26,271 nucleotides of DNA, from UHGV virus genome UHGV-0343389. One strand, written 5' to 3'. Origin of the DNA: a virus. Both the position numbers and the translations under genes were made by a program. Shown piece by piece: positions 1-26,271 of the stretch. Each line of letters begins with the position of its first letter. Within the stretch, counting starts at the first letter, position 1. The notes beneath the pieces were generated by a model. The model did no database searches, had not been told where the DNA came from, and saw only the letters and a program-made list of their open reading frames with translations.

Positions 1-1
1 G

Positions 2-343
2 GATATGTGTGCACATGCAAACAAAATTGCATCAGAAGCAGGAAAGTCACTTCCCATAAAATTGAATGATAATATGTCTATTGTTTCAATAAATGCAATA
101 CTAAACAAACTCTTAGTTGTAGCGCATCTTAATTACAACAACAGCTATTTATCAAAAGTTTATAATGGTGATGTAACCTTAGAAAATAAATTAAAGAGTG
201 TAATGCGAAATTATTCAAAATCGAGCATTTGCTCCAACAGGCAAATGAAAGCATTTATTCACCTTGGCGGAGAGATTGAGTATAGGTATGTATTTAGTGA
301 TGGCAATATATTTGATACATACGCCATCACTAATTGTGAATAG
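2..343 (+). CDS. 5'-truncated AT-rich hypothetical protein (C-terminal 112 aa visible); convergent with the virion module
   Basis: Open frame from the window edge to TAG at 341-343. Visibly AT-rich against the neighbouring operon. Its stop abuts the stop of the 1129-aa minus-strand gene (TAGCTA). No recognisable motifs. Confidence 0.45.
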   Translation, partial: DMCAHANKIASEAGKSLPIKLNDNMSIVSINAILNKLLVVAHLNYNNSYLSKVYNGDVTLENKLKSVMRNYSKSSICSNRQMKAFIHLGGEIEYRYVFSDGNIFDTYAITNCE

Positions 344-3300
344 CTATTTCATCTGCTCTTCAACTTTATTTAGTAACGGTGATATCGCCCACAGGTTCTG
401 AAAAGGTAGCATTTTACGGACCGCGTGGGTTTGCTGGCTGTCAAATTCTCCGTTAAGTACACCATTCGCAACCGTCGCGGCATCACCGCCAAGATCAAAG
501 GTAGGACCAAGTAAAGCACCAATAGCATTACGACTCTGAAACCTTGATACCGGAGGCGCACCAAACATCGCGCCAAGACCAAACCTACCGCCGCTTATGT
601 TCTCAACGGTATTCAGCGGCTCAGAGAGCCAGCCAAGCATTCCGCCCCGGTCGATCCCCTCTTTCACAAGGTTATTCCAGCTGTAGTCGATATCGCGACC
701 GCTTAACTTCTGTTTCATCATATAGACCATTGAGCCAAGCGCAATCGTGCCAAGCGCACCAAGATAGAATGCAGCATCGCCCTGCTGGATACCAGATACT
801 AGCACCCTGTTATGCTGTGCGAAGATAAACGTTTTGAACTGCGTGATCATCTTCCAGCCTTCTTTACTAAAAAACAGCGGTGTATCACCTACGCCAGGCG
901 TTACAATCACTGAGTCTACATCTTTCAGCACTGCAGACTGGAAAATCTCTCTAGCGAAACGGTCATCCCACAGATGACTATGCCCGGTTAACAGCCCGTC
1001 CATATCCTCTCCGTGCTTCCCGAATTGCTCCCCGATTCGGCGCAGAACATCTTCATTGATGCCGACCTGTGCCATCTTCCGCATTTCACTTTTGGAGAGC
1101 GTGCCACCAGCAGAAACTTGGCGAGCCGCGTCAAGTATCCTCGACTGCACTATCATCCCGGACCATGATTTAAGTGCGCTGTTCCACTGATTCATCAGCG
1201 TCCAGTTACCGAATTTCTGCGTCATCCAGTTCAGACCTCGCTCAGCGGCGCTTCTCCGGCTATAGGGGTCAGTAAGATCCGCTATAGCCTTTGTACGCGT
1301 AGACAGGACATAATCAAGCCCAACGGCCATTTCTCGCAAATCCCTGGTTGCAATTTTCACTGAGTCCATATTTTTAAGCATGCTTACCATTGGTCCGAGA
1401 GATTTTCTCAGGCCATGCTGCATCATCGGTCGCATCAGATCAGTTGCAGCGGAGACAGTCATTCCACCAAGCAAACGGAGGAAGTTAATATTCCTAGCAA
1501 CTCGCCCGGCACGAACAAAGAAACTGCGTGGATCTTGAGGTGCACCGTAAGTACCAAGCAGTCGATCACGCATAGCCGTAATATCCCTAATATCAGCCTC
1601 CCGTTGCTTCTCAAGAACTGCACGTCGTTTAGGTGTTTTAGCCTCTTTTATTAGCCGGGTATATTCCTCACTAACCTGACGGATTTGCTCCCCCATATCT
1701 TTACGGCCAAACTGCGCAGTCAGCTCAATTTCTGGTGCCACCTGCCGGAGATAACTTTCCATGATGTAGTTAACATCTGATTCAAGAAAATCTTCTATAC
1801 GCTCATCAGGAATAAGCAGCGTTCTGCTTTTAGTGAAACCAGCCCGACCAACGAGTCTCTCTGGGATAATATCGGCTGGTACAAGCCCGGAAGGTGCGCC
1901 TATTATTTTATTCACGATCTCGTCAGCAGCGTCCTCTGCTTCCTCTCGGGATAGAGGCTCCATCTGCTTCAGTGCTCGTTCGCGGCTTGCATTCAGCCTT
2001 GTGGTTGAATTTGCCCGTTTTTGCAGTCGGCGAAGCTCAGAACGATATTTCCGTGGATTATCCAGCAACTCCATATGGCGCTGATAGACAGGAAGCTCAC
2101 TCTTTGCCTGCGCTATATCATCAAGGCGTGTTTTAAGGTCAGAGCTTTCTTTCATCATTCTTGCCTGAAGTTTTTCTGATGAAGTCTCGGCCAACTCTTT
2201 TTCTATTCTTGTAAGACGCGCCTGTGTGTCAGTCTCCTGAGATATAAGCTTATTTCGTTTATCCAGTTCTTCCATAAGTAGAATTTTTTTACCAGACCAT
2301 TTCTCCGCTTCAGCGATTTCACTAGCGAGAGCATCAGCGCGCGGTGCCGATTCCTCTGCAGTTTTTAGCAATGAATTTATCCTTTCAATTCGCTGACCTG
2401 CTTTGTCAGCACCTTTGGCACTAATCCCTTGTATCCAGTTGGCAATTCGCCCTCTGAATTCAGTGCGGTCGGAAAGTATCTTATCGAACTTATAAATGCG
2501 GGGAAGATAACTTTTCGCCGTCACGACATCGATATCCTCAGGAAGGATCCCCAGTTCCTGCATACGGGCTTTTGTGGTCTCGAAAATGGGGCGGATTCTG
2601 GCGGCTGCTTGTGAAACCTCAGGAATATCACTCTGATCACCACGGCGCATAGCCATGCCAACAGCTTCATTGAAATCAATAAAGCTCATCCTCTTCACGC
2701 CGCGGGCGCTAACAGATTTGCTGTACTGCTGGTAAGCATCACGAGTGGCTTCCATCTGCTTATAAAGCATGGCGTCGTATTGCTTAATCTTAGTCTCGAC
2801 TGCCGTAAACGTAGCCAACCCCTCATCATTTTTGGCGAAGAAATAGTTATTTTCGGCAAGCTGCTGGTTAATCTGACGGGAGACAAGAGATGGTGATTGA
2901 GCCAAGCGGCCAGCAGGAGTGACACTCAACGTTTTGTTAGCAAGTCCAAGTCCAGCGAGCTGTTCCTGATCGAGTGTGGTATTGAAAACCTGAGCTGCAC
3001 CAATGCTTTGAGGAGAATCCATACCTCGCAAATGATTACCTACTGAGTTAACCACTGCCTCGCGCGCGCTAGGTCCAGCAAGTAGCTGTGCACCAGCACC
3101 AAGGATCCCACCAACGAGAGCATCAACAACAACGTTCGATACGCTCTCCATCGGTGAGCGAGCTTCCTGAGTGGCCTGTAATGCGGCTTCTGATACTCCC
3201 CCACCAGCAGCATTCGCTAGGGCAAAACGCCCTGCCGTCTCAGCAATACTTCCTCCACGCGCTACCGCCCCTACAGGGATGAACATTGCAGCCACATTAA

Positions 3301-3733
3301 CCGGGTCTATCATTCCCATTGCTAAGCTTGAAATAGTACCAGCACCACCCATTTCAGATAGATATTCTCTATCTGTTCTTTGCTTATCGATTCGATGTTT
3401 AATTGCCATTGTTTCTTCATGCGAACCGGAGTTGATAAACGAATCTGCAAAATCTTCATAGCCTTTAATATCTGCTGCATCGTTATCAAATGGGTTATAT
3501 CCTTCAACCCTGTCAAACTGACTGAAAGGAGCACTGGCAATAAAGCTACCCAGCGTGTTATCTATACGAAATGCTGCTTGTCTAGACCTTTGAACGCGTT
3601 GATCACTGGTAAATGGGTTCACAGCAGAAAGCAAAGAAGGTGTTTCCATATAGAAATTACTGTCATCAGGTGCTGCTATTTGCTGAATATCCTCGCCAAG
3701 CAACTCTTTAGGATTCTGTTCATATATCGGCAT
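344..3733 (-). CDS. Large internal virion / DNA-ejection protein (T7 gp16-like by position and size)
   Basis: 1129-aa ORF, last gene of the co-directional virion operon, start overlapping the upstream stop. Long coiled-coil-like central region and hydrophobic C-terminal segment. Assignment is by synteny and size only. Confidence 0.55.
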   Translation of the reverse strand: MPIYEQNPKELLGEDIQQIAAPDDSNFYMETPSLLSAVNPFTSDQRVQRSRQAAFRIDNTLGSFIASAPFSQFDRVEGYNPFDNDAADIKGYEDFADSFINSGSHEETMAIKHRIDKQRTDREYLSEMGGAGTISSLAMGMIDPVNVAAMFIPVGAVARGGSIAETAGRFALANAAGGGVSEAALQATQEARSPMESVSNVVVDALVGGILGAGAQLLAGPSAREAVVNSVGNHLRGMDSPQSIGAAQVFNTTLDQEQLAGLGLANKTLSVTPAGRLAQSPSLVSRQINQQLAENNYFFAKNDEGLATFTAVETKIKQYDAMLYKQMEATRDAYQQYSKSVSARGVKRMSFIDFNEAVGMAMRRGDQSDIPEVSQAAARIRPIFETTKARMQELGILPEDIDVVTAKSYLPRIYKFDKILSDRTEFRGRIANWIQGISAKGADKAGQRIERINSLLKTAEESAPRADALASEIAEAEKWSGKKILLMEELDKRNKLISQETDTQARLTRIEKELAETSSEKLQARMMKESSDLKTRLDDIAQAKSELPVYQRHMELLDNPRKYRSELRRLQKRANSTTRLNASRERALKQMEPLSREEAEDAADEIVNKIIGAPSGLVPADIIPERLVGRAGFTKSRTLLIPDERIEDFLESDVNYIMESYLRQVAPEIELTAQFGRKDMGEQIRQVSEEYTRLIKEAKTPKRRAVLEKQREADIRDITAMRDRLLGTYGAPQDPRSFFVRAGRVARNINFLRLLGGMTVSAATDLMRPMMQHGLRKSLGPMVSMLKNMDSVKIATRDLREMAVGLDYVLSTRTKAIADLTDPYSRRSAAERGLNWMTQKFGNWTLMNQWNSALKSWSGMIVQSRILDAARQVSAGGTLSKSEMRKMAQVGINEDVLRRIGEQFGKHGEDMDGLLTGHSHLWDDRFAREIFQSAVLKDVDSVIVTPGVGDTPLFFSKEGWKMITQFKTFIFAQHNRVLVSGIQQGDAAFYLGALGTIALGSMVYMMKQKLSGRDIDYSWNNLVKEGIDRGGMLGWLSEPLNTVENISGGRFGLGAMFGAPPVSRFQSRNAIGALLGPTFDLGGDAATVANGVLNGEFDSQQTHAVRKMLPFQNLWAISPLLNKVEEQMK

Positions 3734-6480
3734 TATTTGCCCCCTGCGTATATATTGCTCGGAAGGTAATTGGCTGAACCATAACCGAATGGTTTGGTCA
3801 GATCTGGAGGAGTATATCCATCTTTATTGCTGAACTGCGGCAGCGGATTGCCTTCTCTCCGCACTCTAGCCTCATCAACACGCTGTTGCTGTAACTGAAT
3901 GGTTTGCCTGTACATTGGAGATGTCAGTTGATCCGGCTTGAAACGAACAGGGAGACCATTTTCTCCAATATAATTTCTCGGTTCTATCGCTCCGTTTGCG
4001 TCAGGCTGTAAAACCATAACAGCATAACTCCTATCCCTTGCCGTAAGGCCATCAGAAACAAGTATTAAGTCCGTATCACTGCGAGGACCGCCAAAGGATT
4101 TTGATTTAAGCTCGCGTTTTTCCTGCTCCCACTGCCCCTGTATCCAGTTACCAGCACCATTATTTACTCCGTACAATGCCTCAGGTGCATACTTCATAAC
4201 CTCTGCTTTGCCATTAACCGTAGAAACTCCCCAGGTGGTTCTGATCATGGCATTGGTCATTTTCTCAGCCTGTTCTGCATCGCCACCTGTCTGTACAAAG
4301 TTAGCATCGTAAATTGTCTGGTAATCTCGCTGATAGGCCGCATTTGATTTTCCTGGATCGGTAATATCCGGAGACCACGAACCAAAGGAAGTCAGACTGC
4401 TGGCGTTATTTTGTGCAGCAGTTGCCCTCGCCGCGACATATTTTTTGTCTCGCATGGCAGTGGAAAGCATCTGTTTCATTCGGTCATCCTGTTGGAACAC
4501 CTGGCTGTAAGCCATATCAACAGCCTTATCCTCCGGCACGCCAGCGCGGGAATAATCGTAAACCTTGCCGTAAAATGCCATCGTACTTTTATCAAGTGTT
4601 GCCGCTGCCGCCGGATTATTATCGAATAACTGACCGTAGAATTTTGCCATCGGGACAACCAGCGCAGGATCTCTTGATGTTGCTCCACTGTTAAGCATTG
4701 TTTTAACCTGAGTTGGTATCATGCCGCTTTTAGTTGTGACGGTGACCAGTGTATTGATGCTCTGCGGATCAGATATGGAAAACGAAGGCGCGATATCCTG
4801 CGCGAAATAACGGTCTACCGCTGCCTGATTGTTTTTGTCGTTCGGGTCCAGCGGGAAGTTATTTTGCATTGAAGACACGAACCTGTTTCTTCCCTGCTGA
4901 ATCTCCCACTCCCTATCCATCTCTTTAAATTTGGCCTGCATTTTCTCCCAGCGTTGCTGGTTAGCAGCAAATCCAGGAGCGTTTGGATCCTGTGGACGTA
5001 AACGTTCAAGAATGTCTTGTCGTCCTTCTGGAGTGAGGTCTTTAGCGGCACCAATGACACCTCCATATTGTATCTGCGCCTGCATATCCTTCCACTTCAT
5101 AGCGCCAATGCGCGGACCATTGGCCCGGATAAAATCGTCCTCAGAAGGTAACTTCTCAGGTTTCAATCCTTCATCAAGGGCTGAATATGCATCTTTAACT
5201 ACGGTGCTAAGCTGGTCCGCATACTGCTGGCGGTACTGATTTCTCAGCTCATTAGCCTGCCTCAATGCCTGTATTTGCATTTGAGGGCTCATAGCATCAA
5301 ATGCCGCATTGCCCGTATAACGCTTAGGTGAATCAAGGTTAGTTAGACCAAGGGCTGCCGAGATACCAGTTTCAAGCTGTTCGGTGCTATAAGGCATACT
5401 GCCATTTTCGTGTTTAATAATCCCAGCACATAAAGCAGCTAGTGTCTTTGGGTTAGAGATATCAAGCTGATCATTCTCCCCAACACCAAGCTCACCACAC
5501 AATGCCCTAATATAAGCATCAGTATTATTACCATCACTAGCCGGAGCATAGCGATTAACAATCTCGCTAACGGTGTCATAGCCTTGACGCTGGTAAGACA
5601 ACATATTTTTACCCAACGCGCGGATTCCATGCTCAGGGGTAGCAAACGTTGCAAAACGTCCATCGCTACCGATCTGACCTTCCCACGGGTTAGATTTGCT
5701 CGCTTCAATATTACCAGGGTTATTATTACGTAAACCACGAGCATCCAATGAATTACCATGTGATATTGCACGACTCACACCACCAAGATCCCCTGGCTCT
5801 CCATTAACCTGAAGAAACTCGTTGTATTTTTGAGCGATATTTCCTATCCATGCTTGCTGCCCCATTTGTTCCTTGAGCTGAGTTTTCTGCTGAACACGCC
5901 ACTCATCAGGAAGCCCATGCGCATCAGCGTATTGATCAATAGATTCAAATCGCTGCTTGGCTAAATCGACAAATGCTTGGTTATCGCTATATAGCCCCGC
6001 AGACTGAGTGACAGCCAATGCATTTCCTGACAAATACGTTTGATCTTGGAATTGCTGAAACTGCCCAACTTCATATCGACGTGCCTGATTGTAATAAGAC
6101 TGCATAGACTGCTGGAGTTGAAAGGATAATTTATTCCTTTCCTCACTTTCAGGGATTGAGCCTAATAATGCCTGAGCCCTTTCCTGCATATTTTTCATAA
6201 CAGCGTCACTCTGACCAAGAGCGTTTTTACCCTGTTTAGAAATCAGCCCATTTTCAGGGTTGTTAATCTGGTCATCTGCAAATTGGTTAAATTGCAGTAA
6301 CGCCTCCTGGGCCATAGCAACATTCGCTTTCTGCCTGGCTTCACCATATGCCACCGCATACTGATCTGCGACATTCGCCAGCACCTGACCTGCTTGAGGA
6401 ACATCGAAGGTCTGAAAACCACCGGTTTGCACACCACGACTTTGCACCTGGCGTCCGGATGTAGTAGGAACAACAGGCAT
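3733..6480 (-). CDS. Internal virion core protein (T7 gp15-like by position); central conserved block, possible cell-wall-active domain
   Basis: 915-aa ORF between the gp14-like and gp16-like genes, translationally coupled at both ends. Contains the block GLRNNNPGNIEASKSNPWEGQIGSDGRFATFATPEHGIRALGKNMLSYQRQGYDT. Function inferred from position. Confidence 0.5.
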   Translation of the reverse strand: MPVVPTTSGRQVQSRGVQTGGFQTFDVPQAGQVLANVADQYAVAYGEARQKANVAMAQEALLQFNQFADDQINNPENGLISKQGKNALGQSDAVMKNMQERAQALLGSIPESEERNKLSFQLQQSMQSYYNQARRYEVGQFQQFQDQTYLSGNALAVTQSAGLYSDNQAFVDLAKQRFESIDQYADAHGLPDEWRVQQKTQLKEQMGQQAWIGNIAQKYNEFLQVNGEPGDLGGVSRAISHGNSLDARGLRNNNPGNIEASKSNPWEGQIGSDGRFATFATPEHGIRALGKNMLSYQRQGYDTVSEIVNRYAPASDGNNTDAYIRALCGELGVGENDQLDISNPKTLAALCAGIIKHENGSMPYSTEQLETGISAALGLTNLDSPKRYTGNAAFDAMSPQMQIQALRQANELRNQYRQQYADQLSTVVKDAYSALDEGLKPEKLPSEDDFIRANGPRIGAMKWKDMQAQIQYGGVIGAAKDLTPEGRQDILERLRPQDPNAPGFAANQQRWEKMQAKFKEMDREWEIQQGRNRFVSSMQNNFPLDPNDKNNQAAVDRYFAQDIAPSFSISDPQSINTLVTVTTKSGMIPTQVKTMLNSGATSRDPALVVPMAKFYGQLFDNNPAAAATLDKSTMAFYGKVYDYSRAGVPEDKAVDMAYSQVFQQDDRMKQMLSTAMRDKKYVAARATAAQNNASSLTSFGSWSPDITDPGKSNAAYQRDYQTIYDANFVQTGGDAEQAEKMTNAMIRTTWGVSTVNGKAEVMKYAPEALYGVNNGAGNWIQGQWEQEKRELKSKSFGGPRSDTDLILVSDGLTARDRSYAVMVLQPDANGAIEPRNYIGENGLPVRFKPDQLTSPMYRQTIQLQQQRVDEARVRREGNPLPQFSNKDGYTPPDLTKPFGYGSANYLPSNIYAGGK

Positions 6481-7058
6481 CAGTAACCTCCTATTTTGAA
6501 TCGGGAGTCAGAATTCATAAAACCTGAGTTAGATAGCATTGGCGTCCCACCACCAGATGTACTTCCTTTAGAGAACGGGCTCCACGTTCCGCCGCCCATC
6601 TGGTATGCACCGTATGCTTTTAGTGGTGCCGTTAACAAAGTGCTGGTCATCGATGATTTAGCAGCCGACTGAGCAGCAGCCCCCTGTGCCTGAGCATTCA
6701 TTCCCTGAACCTGATACCCATATGCCTCACGCTGAGCATTATTCACTGTCGTTAACGCATCAAGAGTGCCGAACTGAGCATTATCCGCAAAAACGTCAAG
6801 AGCTGTTCCGCTACTTAATTCCGCACCGGTAGCCCCCATAGTGGCCGCCGCAGTACCTGAGCGTTGACGCATTTCACGACGACGCTGATCCGCTTCAATA
6901 TTCCCACGATTGATTGAATCCTGTGCCTGAGCTTCAGCAATTTCAGCATTCCGATCAGCTATGGCTGACTGGTATTTTGCCTGCTTGCTCTGGCTGTACA
7001 TTGACGCGGCTGTGGATGCCACTGTGACGGCAACCAAAGCGATGGCTGGGTTACACAT
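6480..7058 (-). CDS. Internal virion protein (T7 gp14-like)
   Basis: 192 aa with hydrophobic N-terminus (AIALVAVTVASTAA) followed by an Ala/Gln-rich low-complexity region. Size and position match gp14-type core proteins. Confidence 0.5.
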   Translation of the reverse strand: MCNPAIALVAVTVASTAASMYSQSKQAKYQSAIADRNAEIAEAQAQDSINRGNIEADQRRREMRQRSGTAAATMGATGAELSSGTALDVFADNAQFGTLDALTTVNNAQREAYGYQVQGMNAQAQGAAAQSAAKSSMTSTLLTAPLKAYGAYQMGGGTWSPFSKGSTSGGGTPMLSNSGFMNSDSRFKIGGY

Positions 7059-11755: not shown

Positions 11756-11806
11756 CTTCTTTCTCCATTAGTGGGTCTGTTACGACCCACAGGTTAATAA
11801 CAGGCG

Positions 11807-12807: not shown

Positions 12808-13521
12808 TTATTTGCCATAGAGCACTTCGGCCGCACTACGCTGGCCTTCATTACCACCGGTGACCATGCCATCTTCAGACATCGCCTTTCCGATTTTCAC
12901 GAACGTTTTGACCAGATCAGGGTGATTACCCAGCCCGGTGGTGTTCAGATATTCTTTGAGTTCAGGTGTCCCGAACTGGTCAAGCGCACGCTGTGCGGCG
13001 CTAAGGTTAGAAATCAACTTGTCGCCACCGATTTCTTTGTCAGCTTTTACATCCGCAGCCCACTGCTCGGTTGTTTTCTGCCAGGCTTCTGCCTGGCGCT
13101 GCTGAACACCTGCCAGAATCTTCGGATAAGCATCAACCAGCTTTTGCGCTTGCTCGTTGGTCAGGTTAAGTTCTCGCGCCACCGGCTCGAATTCCTTCAA
13201 CGCTTCTGTATCCAGCTCTACGCCTTCGGCAGCCTGAAACTCGTACTTCTCAGGCGCACCCTCTGGCTTCTTATCCTTTTCTGCTTCTTCGGTATTGGCT
13301 TTTTCAGCAGCAAGCTCTCCCTCAGTTTTCTGAGCTTCAGAACCTTTCTCAGAGTCAGTCCCCTGGGAGTTATCCTGCGACTGGGTTTGCTCCTGCATTT
13401 CACCCGAGCCCTGAGTGGTTTCAGTTGCTCCCGTTGAAGCTGTATCTGCCTGGCCACCTTCAGTGGATTGCTCATTGCAAAGACGGCGATACAGCAAACG
13501 CTCAAATAAATTCATGATCAC
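12808..13521 (-). CDS. Scaffolding protein
   Basis: 237 aa, strongly acidic, with low-complexity E/Q/T-rich N-terminal half. Lies between the portal and capsid genes with a 4-nt overlap to the upstream gene. Confidence 0.55.
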   Translation of the reverse strand: MIMNLFERLLYRRLCNEQSTEGGQADTASTGATETTQGSGEMQEQTQSQDNSQGTDSEKGSEAQKTEGELAAEKANTEEAEKDKKPEGAPEKYEFQAAEGVELDTEALKEFEPVARELNLTNEQAQKLVDAYPKILAGVQQRQAEAWQKTTEQWAADVKADKEIGGDKLISNLSAAQRALDQFGTPELKEYLNTTGLGNHPDLVKTFVKIGKAMSEDGMVTGGNEGQRSAAEVLYGK

Positions 13522-15801: not shown

Positions 15802-15816
15802 TTACCTTTCAGGTAA
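15802..15816. promoter_or_regulatory. Operator-like palindrome TTACCTTTCAGGTAA upstream of the portal operon
   Basis: Perfect 5+5 inverted repeat with 5-bp spacer, in the intergenic region between the portal operon and the tRNA island. Overlaps a TTGACA-containing candidate promoter. Confidence 0.6.
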
Positions 15817-16138: not shown

Positions 16139-16215
16139 GTGGCATTAGCTCAGCTGGACAGAGCAACCGCCTTCTAAGCGGTTGGTCGCAGGTTCGAATC
16201 CTGCATGCCACGCCA
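16139..16215 (+). tRNA. tRNA-Arg (anticodon UCU), phage-encoded
   Basis: Cloverleaf folded by hand: acceptor GTGGCAT/ATGCCAC, D-stem GCTC/GAGC, anticodon stem ACCGC/GCGGT with loop CTTCTAA, T-stem GCAGG/CCTGC with loop TTCGAAT, discriminator G and encoded CCA. 77 nt. Confidence 0.9.
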
Positions 16216-16301: not shown

Positions 16302-16379
16302 ACAGCAGGACGCCATTGCGATGACTTCATGCTGTAAACCAGTACAGCCACGGAAGGCATAACTCATTGCTTCCAGTTC

Positions 16380-18403: not shown

Positions 18404-18996
18404 TGATTACCATCCTGACGTTCTTTGAGTCGCTTCCTGGCTGCTGCTATGCGATCAGCAATTGTCACATTCACATTAACATCCAGGCGTTCTTTGAATG
18501 CGTTGACGTCGACGTGCTTACCAATCAGTTCGAGGTTCTTCACCTTGTCAGGCCATTTAATTTTTTTGAGGATTGTCTCTATCGAATCCTCGTTCATGTT
18601 CATGATGGTCGATGACAGATCAAAGCCGCTAAGCGTAGTGCGCCAGATTTTCGGCCACTCGCGGATTGGCTTAAGGCTCCCATCGTCGTTGAGGATGTCG
18701 ATCACGTCCATCTGGTCGATCTCCACCAGGCGCATGAGAACGTAATCAGCACTGACGCGCATTCGTTTGTTGCGCTCTTCCATCAGCTCGGCAATCCGTT
18801 TTTGAATGCGTTCATCGCGCATCATGACACTGGCTTTAACTGCCGCTGTATTTGGGGAGAATCCTGCGTTAATCGCTGCCTGAGTCTGGTTTTCAGGCGT
18901 TTTGATGTATGACTGGCAATAAGCCTCCTGCATTGCTGTTAGTGGCTTAAATTGCGTTGATTTGCGTTTATAGGTTTTAGGTTCAGCAGGCATCAT
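18400..18996 (-). CDS. Terminase small subunit
   Basis: Immediately upstream of terL and translationally coupled. Start trimmed to ATGATG at 18996 (SD GGTGG). The longer track ORF to 19074 reads through operator repeats and a terminator. Confidence 0.65.
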   Translation of the reverse strand: MMPAEPKTYKRKSTQFKPLTAMQEAYCQSYIKTPENQTQAAINAGFSPNTAAVKASVMMRDERIQKRIAELMEERNKRMRVSADYVLMRLVEIDQMDVIDILNDDGSLKPIREWPKIWRTTLSGFDLSSTIMNMNEDSIETILKKIKWPDKVKNLELIGKHVDVNAFKERLDVNVNVTIADRIAAARKRLKERQDGNQ

Positions 18997-19010
18997 AACC
19001 ACCGTGGTAA
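18996..19010. promoter_or_regulatory. Operator-like site TAACCACCGTGGTAA (one mismatch), overlapping the terS start
   Basis: Inverted repeat 18 bp (centre to centre) from the perfect site at 19014-19028. Confidence 0.45.
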
Positions 19011-19013
19011 TAG

Positions 19014-19028
19014 TTACCGTTGTGGTAA
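19014..19028. promoter_or_regulatory. Operator-like palindrome TTACCGTTGTGGTAA upstream of terS
   Basis: Perfect match to TTACC-N5-GGTAA, between an intrinsic terminator and the terS start codon. Confidence 0.6.
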
Positions 19029-24931: not shown

Positions 24932-24946
24932 TTACCTTTAAGGTGC
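24932..24946. promoter_or_regulatory. Operator-like site TTACCTTTAAGGTGC (right half imperfect)
   Basis: Lies between the cro-proximal terminator and the zinc-finger gene. Confidence 0.4.
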
Positions 24947-25001: not shown

Positions 25002-25232
25002 TCATGAGTAGAAGAAGTATGCCAGTTCTGCTTTTGAGCGCAGCCATTGTCTTGTTTTACAGGCTTTAAAAAGCCCATTCATCAATACTTTACCTGGCAT
25101 TTTGCGCTTACCTGTTAAGTGAGTCTGGATATAGTGACTCGTCGTTCCGGCTTCCTGTGCGAAGGCTTCACGCTCATCCGGAGTAAGTGCAAGCCAGTGC
25201 TTTTTGAAATCGAAATGTCCGTTATCGCTCAT
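25002..25232 (-). CDS. Cro-like HTH regulator
   Basis: 76 aa with HTH-like segment (REAFAQEAGTTSHYIQTHLTGKRKM). Divergent from the repressor gene across an operator-rich region and followed by the replication genes. Confidence 0.55.
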   Translation of the reverse strand: MSDNGHFDFKKHWLALTPDEREAFAQEAGTTSHYIQTHLTGKRKMPGKVLMNGLFKACKTRQWLRSKAELAYFFYS

Positions 25233-25268
25233 AGCTATTGCCTGATATTTATTTCAGATAATAAATAT

Positions 25269-25283
25269 TCACCCATAAGGTAA
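25269..25283. promoter_or_regulatory. Operator-like site TCACCCATAAGGTAA (OR region)
   Basis: One of three sites in the 154-bp divergent intergenic region. Left half has one mismatch. Confidence 0.45.
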
Positions 25284-25299
25284 CAAAAATCAAGGATAG

Positions 25300-25314
25300 T
25301 TACCTATGAGGTGC
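25300..25314. promoter_or_regulatory. Operator-like site TTACCTATGAGGTGC (OR region)
   Basis: Right half imperfect. Centre 17 bp from the next site and 31 bp from the previous one. Confidence 0.45.
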
Positions 25315-25316
25315 AT

Positions 25317-25331
25317 TTACCTGTTGGGTAA
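25317..25331. promoter_or_regulatory. Operator-like palindrome TTACCTGTTGGGTAA (OR region)
   Basis: Perfect site in the cro/cI intergenic region. Confidence 0.6.
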
Positions 25332-25386: not shown

Positions 25387-25971
25387 ATGAAAAGTATCCA
25401 GGACGTCCGCAGGCAAAATCTCAACGACTTGATCGACCGTGAATTCAATGGTGTTCAGACGCGGATGGCAGAAAAACTTGGAACTCAGGCAAATCTGGTA
25501 AACCGCTGGGCTCTTGGCAAGAAGGTTATCGGCGACCAGGTTGCGCGAAAAATTGAAGCTGCCGCCAATAAACCCCGTAACTGGCTTGATATCGATCGCT
25601 CGCTTTCTCAGGAAGGTTTTCAGCCTGTCGGCCCAAGCGACATTGGTCAGCTGGCGGCTCACAACCTGGAACGCTGGATGAGCGAAAGCCGCGACCTTTC
25701 AACACAGGGAAAACTTCACCGCGCATCCGGCGTCGCCCAGGTGACAATCAGCCGCCTGTTAAACAATGAGGTTAGCGTTTCCATTTCCACCCTGGAGAAT
25801 GTGGCATCCGCATTCGGGCGTCACGGCTATGAATTACTGATTCACCCGCACGACCCTGCGACCATCAACTATGACCGCTCGCGCTACGCATTGTTACCCG
25901 AAACCGAGAAAGCAAAGATCGAAAGTTACATTGAATTTGTCATCAACCAGAACGAAAAAAGCAAACAATAA
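25387..25971 (+). CDS. CI-like immunity repressor with two HTH (XRE-type) domains and no recognisable S24 peptidase domain
   Basis: 194 aa. HTH 1 near residues 20-45 (QTRMAEKLGTQANLVNRWALGKK). HTH 2 near residues 110-140 (LHRASGVAQVTISRLLNNEVSVS). No Ser/Lys autocleavage module evident. Divergent from the Cro-like gene. Confidence 0.6.
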   Translation: MKSIQDVRRQNLNDLIDREFNGVQTRMAEKLGTQANLVNRWALGKKVIGDQVARKIEAAANKPRNWLDIDRSLSQEGFQPVGPSDIGQLAAHNLERWMSESRDLSTQGKLHRASGVAQVTISRLLNNEVSVSISTLENVASAFGRHGYELLIHPHDPATINYDRSRYALLPETEKAKIESYIEFVINQNEKSKQ

Positions 25972-25991: not shown

Positions 25992-26018
25992 AAGCCGCCT
26001 CATGGCGGCTTTTTTATT
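25992..26018 (+). terminator. Rho-independent terminator after the repressor gene
   Basis: AAGCCGCC-TCAT-GGCGGCTT followed by TTTTATT. Confidence 0.7.
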
Positions 26019-26028
26019 GCCAGATAGA

Positions 26029-26043
26029 TTACCTTACGGGTAA
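26029..26043. promoter_or_regulatory. Operator-like palindrome TTACCTTACGGGTAA (OL-like, upstream of -35)
   Basis: Perfect site. Centre 62 bp from the site at 26091-26105. Confidence 0.6.
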
Positions 26044-26062: not shown

Positions 26063-26091
26063 TTGACACCAAACCAAATAAGCATAATTAT
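26063..26091 (+). promoter_or_regulatory. Sigma-70-like promoter (TTGACA, 16-17 bp spacer, TAATTA/AATTAT), pL-like
   Basis: Consensus -35 hexamer at 26063-26068 and an AT-rich -10 at about 26085-26091. Flanked by two operator-like sites. Drives the plus-strand gene starting at 26125. Confidence 0.55.
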
Positions 26092-26105
26092 TACCTCAAC
26101 GGTAA
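26091..26105. promoter_or_regulatory. Operator-like palindrome TTACCTCAACGGTAA overlapping the -10/start region
   Basis: Perfect site immediately downstream of or overlapping the -10 element. Confidence 0.6.
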
Positions 26106-26124: not shown

Positions 26125-26271
26125 ATGCAGTGGAAAATCATCAACGGTTGGTACTGCGTTACTGCATGCGGATTCATGAGCTGGAAGTTCCGCACCTTAC
26201 AGGAAGGCATTAAGTGGGCTTTCGTCAGCAAAGAAGCTCGCGATGTGGCCAACGATAACCCAGCGGACGCC
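26125..26271 (+). CDS. 3'-truncated hypothetical protein, first gene of the operator-controlled leftward (pL-like) operon
   Basis: ATG at 26125 with SD GAGGT about 8 nt upstream. Open to the window end (MQWKIINGWYCVTACGFMSWKFRTLQEGIKW...). Not Arg-rich, so not N-like. Confidence 0.45.
   Translation, partial: MQWKIINGWYCVTACGFMSWKFRTLQEGIKWAFVSKEARDVANDNPADA

Follow-up and report, generated by a model that had tools for sequence, protein, structure and literature searches.

A two-HTH repressor of a phiV10-like Escherichia coli prophage is a homologue of SPC32H Rep, most likely relieved by a LexA-controlled antirepressor

The window analysed here, which is the whole 26,271 nt stretch of the virus genome UHGV-0343389, is a phiV10-like E. 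coli prophage (Uetakevirus, epsilon15-like podophages). It is 96-98% identical to phiV10 over most of its length, and it runs in reverse orientation with respect to the phiV10 reference. The gene that we name rep occupies positions 25387-25971 of the plus strand, starts with ATG, and encodes a protein of 194 aa, the stop codon being inside these coordinates. All 28 aligned homologues open with the residues MKSI, which indicates that the start codon is correct. Downstream of rep there is an intrinsic terminator (25992-26011, plus strand) with an 8-bp GC-rich stem followed by a T run, and it is an annotated terminator in phiV10. Divergent from rep, on the minus strand at 25002-25232, is a gene for a 76-aa cro/cII-like early regulator, the equivalent of phiV10 gp41, identified by its match to the transcriptional repressor family phrog_35 (E=5.6e-13) and by the phiV10 annotation.

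The gene is the lysogeny repressor already described for phiV10/epsilon15-like prophages of E. coli. By tblastn, Rep is 99.5-100% identical in 15 phage records. The protein of phage HEMP4 is 100% identical to it, while phiV10 gp40 (YP_512295.1) and ORF21 of vB_EcoP_ZX5 (tblastn) are both 99.5% identical over the full length, each with one residue different. The rep region is found in 539 of 5426 complete E. coli genomes, so that phiV10-type prophages are present in about 10% of them, with O157 and further pathogenic lineages among the hosts. Homologues of about 194 aa occur as well in prophages of Citrobacter, Lelliottia, Klebsiella, Raoultella, Serratia and Salmonella. For ZX5, overexpression of ORF21 lowers holin and endolysin mRNA by 99.97-99.99% and abolishes free phage (Li et al. 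2022, PMC9782041); the ZX5 lysogen is induced by mitomycin C (PMC9782041), and ZX5 lysogens show high-titre spontaneous induction. The novelty implied by the sequence-only reading of this locus for a repressor with two HTH motifs does not stand, as the GenBank/RefSeq record of phiV10 already notes “two helix-turn-helix motifs” for gp40. Publications or database records already contain the Rep protein, the fact that it has two HTH domains, its action as a repressor, and the induction of its family through an antirepressor; the finding is real but ordinary, and its value as a discovery is small.

Rep divides into three modules joined by one linker. The N-terminal module (residues 1-70, positions 25387-25596, plus strand) is an XRE/Cro-type HTH DNA-binding domain, assigned from Pfam, PHROG, helices 24-31 and 35-43 of the structural model, and homology to SPC32H Rep. 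It is followed by a variable disordered linker (residues 71-88, positions 25597-25650, plus strand), where homologues have indels. The second module (residues 89-152, positions 25651-25842, plus strand) is another HTH_3-type domain. The last module (residues 153-194, positions 25843-25968, plus strand) is a predicted C-terminal element for tetramerisation and antirepressor binding, by homology to SPC32H Rep. In Pfam, the HTH_3 family (PF01381) matches two stretches of Rep with E=1.2e-9 and 38.5 bits against a cutoff of 23, the best of the two being residues 106-147; this match above the gathering threshold places Rep amongst the XRE/Cro-C1 HTH proteins. A Pfam Cro/YdaS-type HTH matches residues 21-61. 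The PHROG repressor families match the two halves separately, with phrog_5736 on residues 1-76 (E=2.8e-11) and phrog_13326 on residues 98-192 (E=3.1e-23), and phrog_12107 also matches the N-terminal part (residues 1-76). The AlphaFold2 monomer model, made from 29 homologues, has a mean pLDDT of 77 and includes two helical bundles (residues 4-59 and 84-151), a disordered stretch of linker at residues 74-83 where the pLDDT falls below 50, and a long C-terminal helix (residues 172-193). The C-terminal beta-strand is absent from the monomer model, in which the pLDDT is below 50 at residues 157-163.

Pfam, PHROG and the AlphaFold2 model thus agree with the sequence-only reading that this 194-aa protein has two XRE-type HTH domains. 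That count of modules was right for the HTH domains and missed the C-terminal element. Judged by its conservation in sequence, the stretch from residue 153 to residue 194 is a distinct conserved module, with Y162, L170 and F184 invariant among the 29 homologues and position 181 always Y or F. Also invariant among the 29 aligned homologues are Q118 and R123, which form the XRE-like signature of the second HTH. The two HTH domains have no significant similarity to each other that would identify an internal duplication (best E=0.21), and they have different charge, with a pI of 9.98 for the basic N-terminal domain and 7.03 for the neutral second domain. The same reading had found no C-terminal S24 module, and the domain search for a cryptic peptidase bears this out: Pfam gives no Peptidase_S24 match in Rep even at E≤10. 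The approximately 42 residues that follow the second HTH domain are too few for an S24 fold. Rep does not belong with the S24 repressors of the LexA/lambda cI type, and its C-terminal half aligns instead to the non-peptidase fold of PDB structure 5D4Z.

The structures that match Rep are those of the repressor of the Salmonella phage SPC32H. A phmmer search against the PDB aligns residues 1-190 of Rep to residues 2-197 of chain 5D50_A with E=3.5e-42, and finds 5D4Z, which contains residues 92-198 of SPC32H Rep, with E=3.6e-20. A Foldseek search of the PDB with the AlphaFold2 model has 5D50 and 5D4Z filling the top 11 places. By tblastn, Rep is 42.7-43.2% identical to the repressors of SPC32H, SPN1S and epsilon15 over 99% of the query. 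The identity to SPC32H Rep varies by module: it is 54% in the N-terminal domain (1-70), 22% in the linker (71-88), 34% in the middle domain (89-152), and 50% in the C-terminal element (153-194). NLVNRW, the recognition helix, is shared without change. SPC32H Rep was first reported elsewhere (PDB 5D50, a Rep-Ant complex, and 5D4Z; PMID 23986584, J Virol 2013; PMID 27099293, PNAS 2016). Other papers that describe it assign DNA binding to the N-terminal domain and dimerisation to the middle one (MDD), while the C-terminal domain (CAD or “TetDloop”) tetramerises and binds the antirepressor Ant, with Phe187 and Phe190 at the tetramer interface. As described in these papers, SPC32H Rep binds DNA as a tetramer in which the N-terminal domains paired on one palindrome come from different dimers, and the Ant tetramer binds two Rep dimers and so breaks the Rep tetramer. 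This three-module architecture is present in Rep according to Pfam/PHROG, AlphaFold2 and Foldseek. The second domain of Rep is the equivalent of the MDD and aligns to 5D4Z, and Phe187 and Phe190 align to Y181 and F184.

The likeness between Rep and SPC32H Rep extends from the length class (194 and 198 aa), the three modules, the NLVNRW helix and the aromatic interface residues to the position of the gene in an epsilon15-like podophage genome, the operator palindrome, the arrangement of the operators around the gene, and a partner antirepressor preceded by a LexA box. The two differ in sequence (about 43% identity), in the linker, which is shorter in Rep, in Gln118 of Rep where SPC32H has a Pro (GIGPATVNR), and in the host, E. 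coli for the phage of Rep and Salmonella for SPC32H. Because Rep is only 43% identical to the solved protein, and 34% in the dimerisation domain, its oligomeric state and its binding of Ant are extrapolated from SPC32H Rep; Rep is presumably a tetramer.

The palindrome TTACC-N5-GGTAA, pointed out in the sequence-only reading, is real and not random. The window has 9 sites with at most one mismatch where 0.41 are expected, and none of 100 shuffles reaches 9. The SPC32H genome has 18 sites where 0.65 are expected. Candidate operators flank rep in a lambda-like OR/OL layout. The putative OR lies between rep and the divergent cro-like gene, with sites at 25269-25283 (one mismatch), 25300-25314 (two mismatches) and 25317-25331 (exact). 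These three sites are spaced by 17 and 31 bp in the window, and by 17 and 30 bp at the equivalent position in SPC32H. A PR-like promoter of the cro-like gene is proposed from a consensus scan only (25258-25286, minus strand; -35 TTGTTA, 17-nt spacer, -10 TATTAT), and the candidate operator 25269-25283 sits in its spacer and overlaps the -35. On the other side of rep, the candidate OL has two exact sites, 26029-26043 and 26091-26105, with their centres 62 bp apart. The sites lie on either side of a PL-like promoter (-35 TTGACA at 26063, 17-nt spacer, -10 AATTAT ending at 26091) that precedes the early-left operon, whose ATG is at 26126. The 62-bp spacing recurs in SPC32H (33604/33666) and elsewhere in the window (22948/23010). 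A spacing of about six helical turns between paired sites suits a tetramer bridging one palindrome to the other, and Rep would be the protein that binds at these sites.

Other copies of the palindrome lie far from rep. There is one at 15802-15816, a close pair at 18996 and 19014 (18996-19028) near the start of the terminase small-subunit gene, and the 62-bp-spaced pair 22948-22962/23010-23024 between the replication P-like and DUF1064 genes. In a closely related prophage described below (locus L003), sites at 12838, 13218 and 14279 flank the antirepressor gene and moron genes. These distant sites suggest a reach beyond PR and PL for Rep, or for another regulator that shares its specificity. 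A variant, TTACC-N5-GGTGC, occurs twice, at 25300-25314 inside OR and at 24932-24946 just downstream of the terminator of the cro-like gene. These variant sites may work as weak operators, or may serve a different regulator, for instance the Cro-like protein.

The antirepressor gene would lie outside the window. In SPC32H, ant (SPC32H_020, 86 aa) is located between the virion genes and the tailspike gene. A tblastn search of the window for homologues of Ant and of a larger Bro-N protein gave nothing significant, which places the antirepressor outside; the window stops short of the virion-tailspike region. Prophages in 120 E. coli genomes match the left end of the window (1-2500) at 99.9% identity. 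In one of these, the prophage of E. coli F2_407_2_2, position 1 of the window corresponds to L003:16001, and a homologue of Ant of 85 aa is encoded at L003:12929-13186, about 3.1 kb to the left of the window start and beside the tail-fibre gene. This protein shares 88% identity with SPC32H Ant and matches chain 5D50_E with E=1.4e-46. At L003:12892-12907, 20 nt upstream of the ATG of ant, is TACTGTATATTTATACAGTT (CTGT-N8-ACAG), a LexA box close to the consensus, and the equivalent box is conserved in phiV10, ZX5 and SPC32H. The suggestion in the sequence-only reading that a LexA-controlled antirepressor be searched for thus came out negative within the window and positive in a 99.9%-identical prophage beyond its left end. 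Homologues of Rep were found in 36 Uetakevirus phage records and those of Ant in 35, drawn from the same set, and the ant region is found in 529 of the 5426 complete E. coli genomes that have the rep region in 539. From this co-occurrence and the 99.9%-identical prophage, ant is probably also part of the phage in the window.

Candidate LexA boxes and one candidate antirepressor inside the window were rejected. Matches to CTGT-N8-ACAG occur at 11777 and 16332, with GC-containing spacers, and 8 of 100 shuffles give at least two such matches, so that their number does not exceed chance. The second of them (16332-16347, CTGTAAACCAGTACAG), upstream of a Gp49-family gene, has a spacer that is not rich in AT and is unlikely to be bound by LexA. 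A 112-aa ORF at 5-343 had no PDB match as an antirepressor; a 146-aa hypothetical protein is truncated there by the window edge, and the ORF is its C-terminal part.

Kim and Ryu reportedly found in 2013 that SPC32H Rep stays uncleaved on SOS induction. They are also said to have found that ant is repressed by LexA, and that the sibling phage SPC32N is constitutively lytic owing to a point mutation in the LexA box. A review cites Kim and Ryu 2013 amongst the cases of Salmonella prophages where, once LexA has cleaved itself, an antirepressor is made that contacts the repressor protein and inhibits it. An antirepressor in place of RecA-stimulated self-cleavage had been anticipated for this locus, and the Ant homologue with its LexA box in a near-identical prophage agrees with it: induction is most likely through a LexA-controlled antirepressor, and Ant would be the inducer in this phage.

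Taking these observations together, we consider it very probable that rep is the lysogeny-maintenance repressor of a phiV10-like prophage, an orthologue-level relative of SPC32H Rep that acts as a tetramer on its operators and is undone by a LexA-gated Ant. The basic N-terminal HTH would read the TTACC half-sites of the 15-bp palindrome. The second HTH-like domain would have lost DNA binding and would make the primary dimer, and the C-terminal strand-plus-helix element would join two dimers into a tetramer. The tetramer would occupy paired operators, those of OR lying over the PR-like promoter and those of OL to either side of the PL-like promoter, and would keep the early lytic operons silent. 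Rep would be unable to cleave itself. Upon DNA damage, cleavage of LexA would derepress ant, and Ant would bind the C-terminal region of Rep and split the tetramer into dimers that come off the DNA.

The sequence-only reading had proposed a different use of the two HTH domains, in which both contact DNA and one monomer spans one TTACC-N5-GGTAA with one HTH on each half-site. The clear HTH_3 match of the second domain and the retention of its XRE-like signature, with Q118 and R123 invariant, are what one would expect from it. In the available descriptions of SPC32H Rep, however, the second domain dimerises and it is the N-terminal domains of the tetramer that bind DNA, and SPC32H has the same palindrome even though its Rep has a Pro in place of that Gln. 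A perfect palindrome calls for two identical readers, and since the two domains have no significant similarity, reading of identical half-sites by both is not expected; their pI values (10.0 and 7.0) are also against it. We hold a monomer spanning the palindrome to be very unlikely. In a less likely variant of the tetramer reading, the middle HTH, with Q118 and R123 kept in the phiV10 clade, would still touch DNA. As for Rep being a cryptic self-cleaving repressor, by a non-S24 site or with host RecA, we found no point in its support, and we give it practically no credence. In addition to the lack of any S24 match at E≤10 and the just 42 residues after the second HTH domain, the SPC32H Rep fold accounts for every residue range, and the review cites SPC32H as an antirepressor-type system.

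How Rep is inactivated has a more serious competitor in a second protein. Adjoining ant is a gene for a Bro-N protein (L003:13502-14212, about 1.8-2.5 kb to the left of the window start), whose C-terminal domain is Ant-like (residues 155-231, E=2.2e-13 to 5D50_E, 41% identity to the small Ant). The same Bro-N::Ant-like fusion is ORF4 of ZX5 (L004:1078-1773). There are thus two modules of Ant type in the phage, and the LexA box belongs to the small one alone. Rep could be inactivated mainly by this larger protein, or by another non-SOS signal, with the small Ant being secondary. The homology of its C-terminal domain to Ant favours such a role, as does the effect of overexpressing ORF4 in ZX5, which causes a drop of about 1000-fold in prophage titre and of 75% in rep mRNA (PMC9782041), and so does the high-titre spontaneous induction of ZX5 lysogens. 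Nevertheless, the small Ant is closer to the proven Ant of SPC32H (88% against 41% identity), it alone has the conserved LexA box, and the induction of ZX5 by mitomycin C fits SOS control. We consider it improbable that the Bro-N protein or a non-SOS signal is the main route, and the Bro-N “anti-repressor” of the ZX5 study is probably not the main inducer; the likely inducer is the small LexA-controlled gene annotated as “hypothetical protein”. We found no published test of the small Ant in an E. coli phage, the ZX5 “anti-repressor” ORF4 being the Bro-N protein instead. The two routes are compatible and not mutually exclusive. A combination in which Rep is targeted both by the LexA-gated 85-aa Ant and by the Bro-N::Ant-like fusion, which lies downstream of a Rep-type operator, so that SOS derepression would turn on the second antirepressor and lock in induction, is a speculation that we find possible but doubtful.

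Returning to the small Ant as the inducer, phiV10-type and SPC32H-type phages share 88% identity in this protein, against only 43% in Rep (50% in the C-terminal element, 34% in the middle domain). The conservation of Ant next to a diverged Rep suggests that Ant is constrained, and that the same Ant might cross-induce epsilon15-like prophages with diverged repressors. The result has some practical value: phiV10 serves as a reporter phage, and knowing the small Ant as the likely inducer helps with annotation and with the making of strictly lytic or non-inducible derivatives.

The logic proposed for Rep, a non-cleavable repressor with a small LexA-repressed antirepressor, is the same as that of CI/Tum of coliphage 186 and of the Salmonella Gifsy/Fels-2 prophages. 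The repressor and antirepressor proteins are unrelated, though, and those phages are of Myoviridae/Siphoviridae type. With lambda cI, P22 c2, 434 cI and LexA, Rep has in common the N-terminal XRE-type HTH. The immunity region also has a lambda-like layout, with PL/OL, the repressor gene, OR and a divergent cro-like gene, and with multiple operators and presumably oligomer-mediated cooperativity. Unlike those proteins, Rep is without S24; by analogy to SPC32H Rep, its C-terminal half would combine a degenerate HTH that dimerises with a tetramerisation element resembling that of p53, and its inactivation would be reversible and brought about by a protein partner. Rco of plasmid pLS20 and the p53 TetDloop offer a further likeness, namely an N-terminal HTH DNA-binding domain with a C-terminal strand-helix tetramerisation element and control by a protein anti-repressor. 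In contrast to Rep, Rco does not have a middle HTH-like dimerisation domain, and there is no detectable sequence homology between the two in the tetramerisation element.

Outside the immunity region, the prophage differs from phiV10 in its internal-virion/tail module (1-7053). This part of the window has three large internal-virion/ejection ORFs (1129, 915 and 192 aa) with no DNA-level homology to phiV10. Its matches are phage EC.W1-9 (98%) and Klebsiella phages (about 81%), a sign that core/ejection proteins have been exchanged in mosaic fashion. The prophage of E. coli F2_407_2_2 carries an IS3-family insertion in its tail-fibre gene (L003:8776-12575, outside the window), so that this copy is probably defective. 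Its moron genes, located from ant towards the virion genes, include a YafO-family toxin-antitoxin pair (L003:14336-15161, also outside the window). Finally, the window carries a tRNA-Arg gene at 16139-16215 on the plus strand, with anticodon TCT for the rare AGA codon, which is annotated in SPC32H and in the E. coli prophage too.
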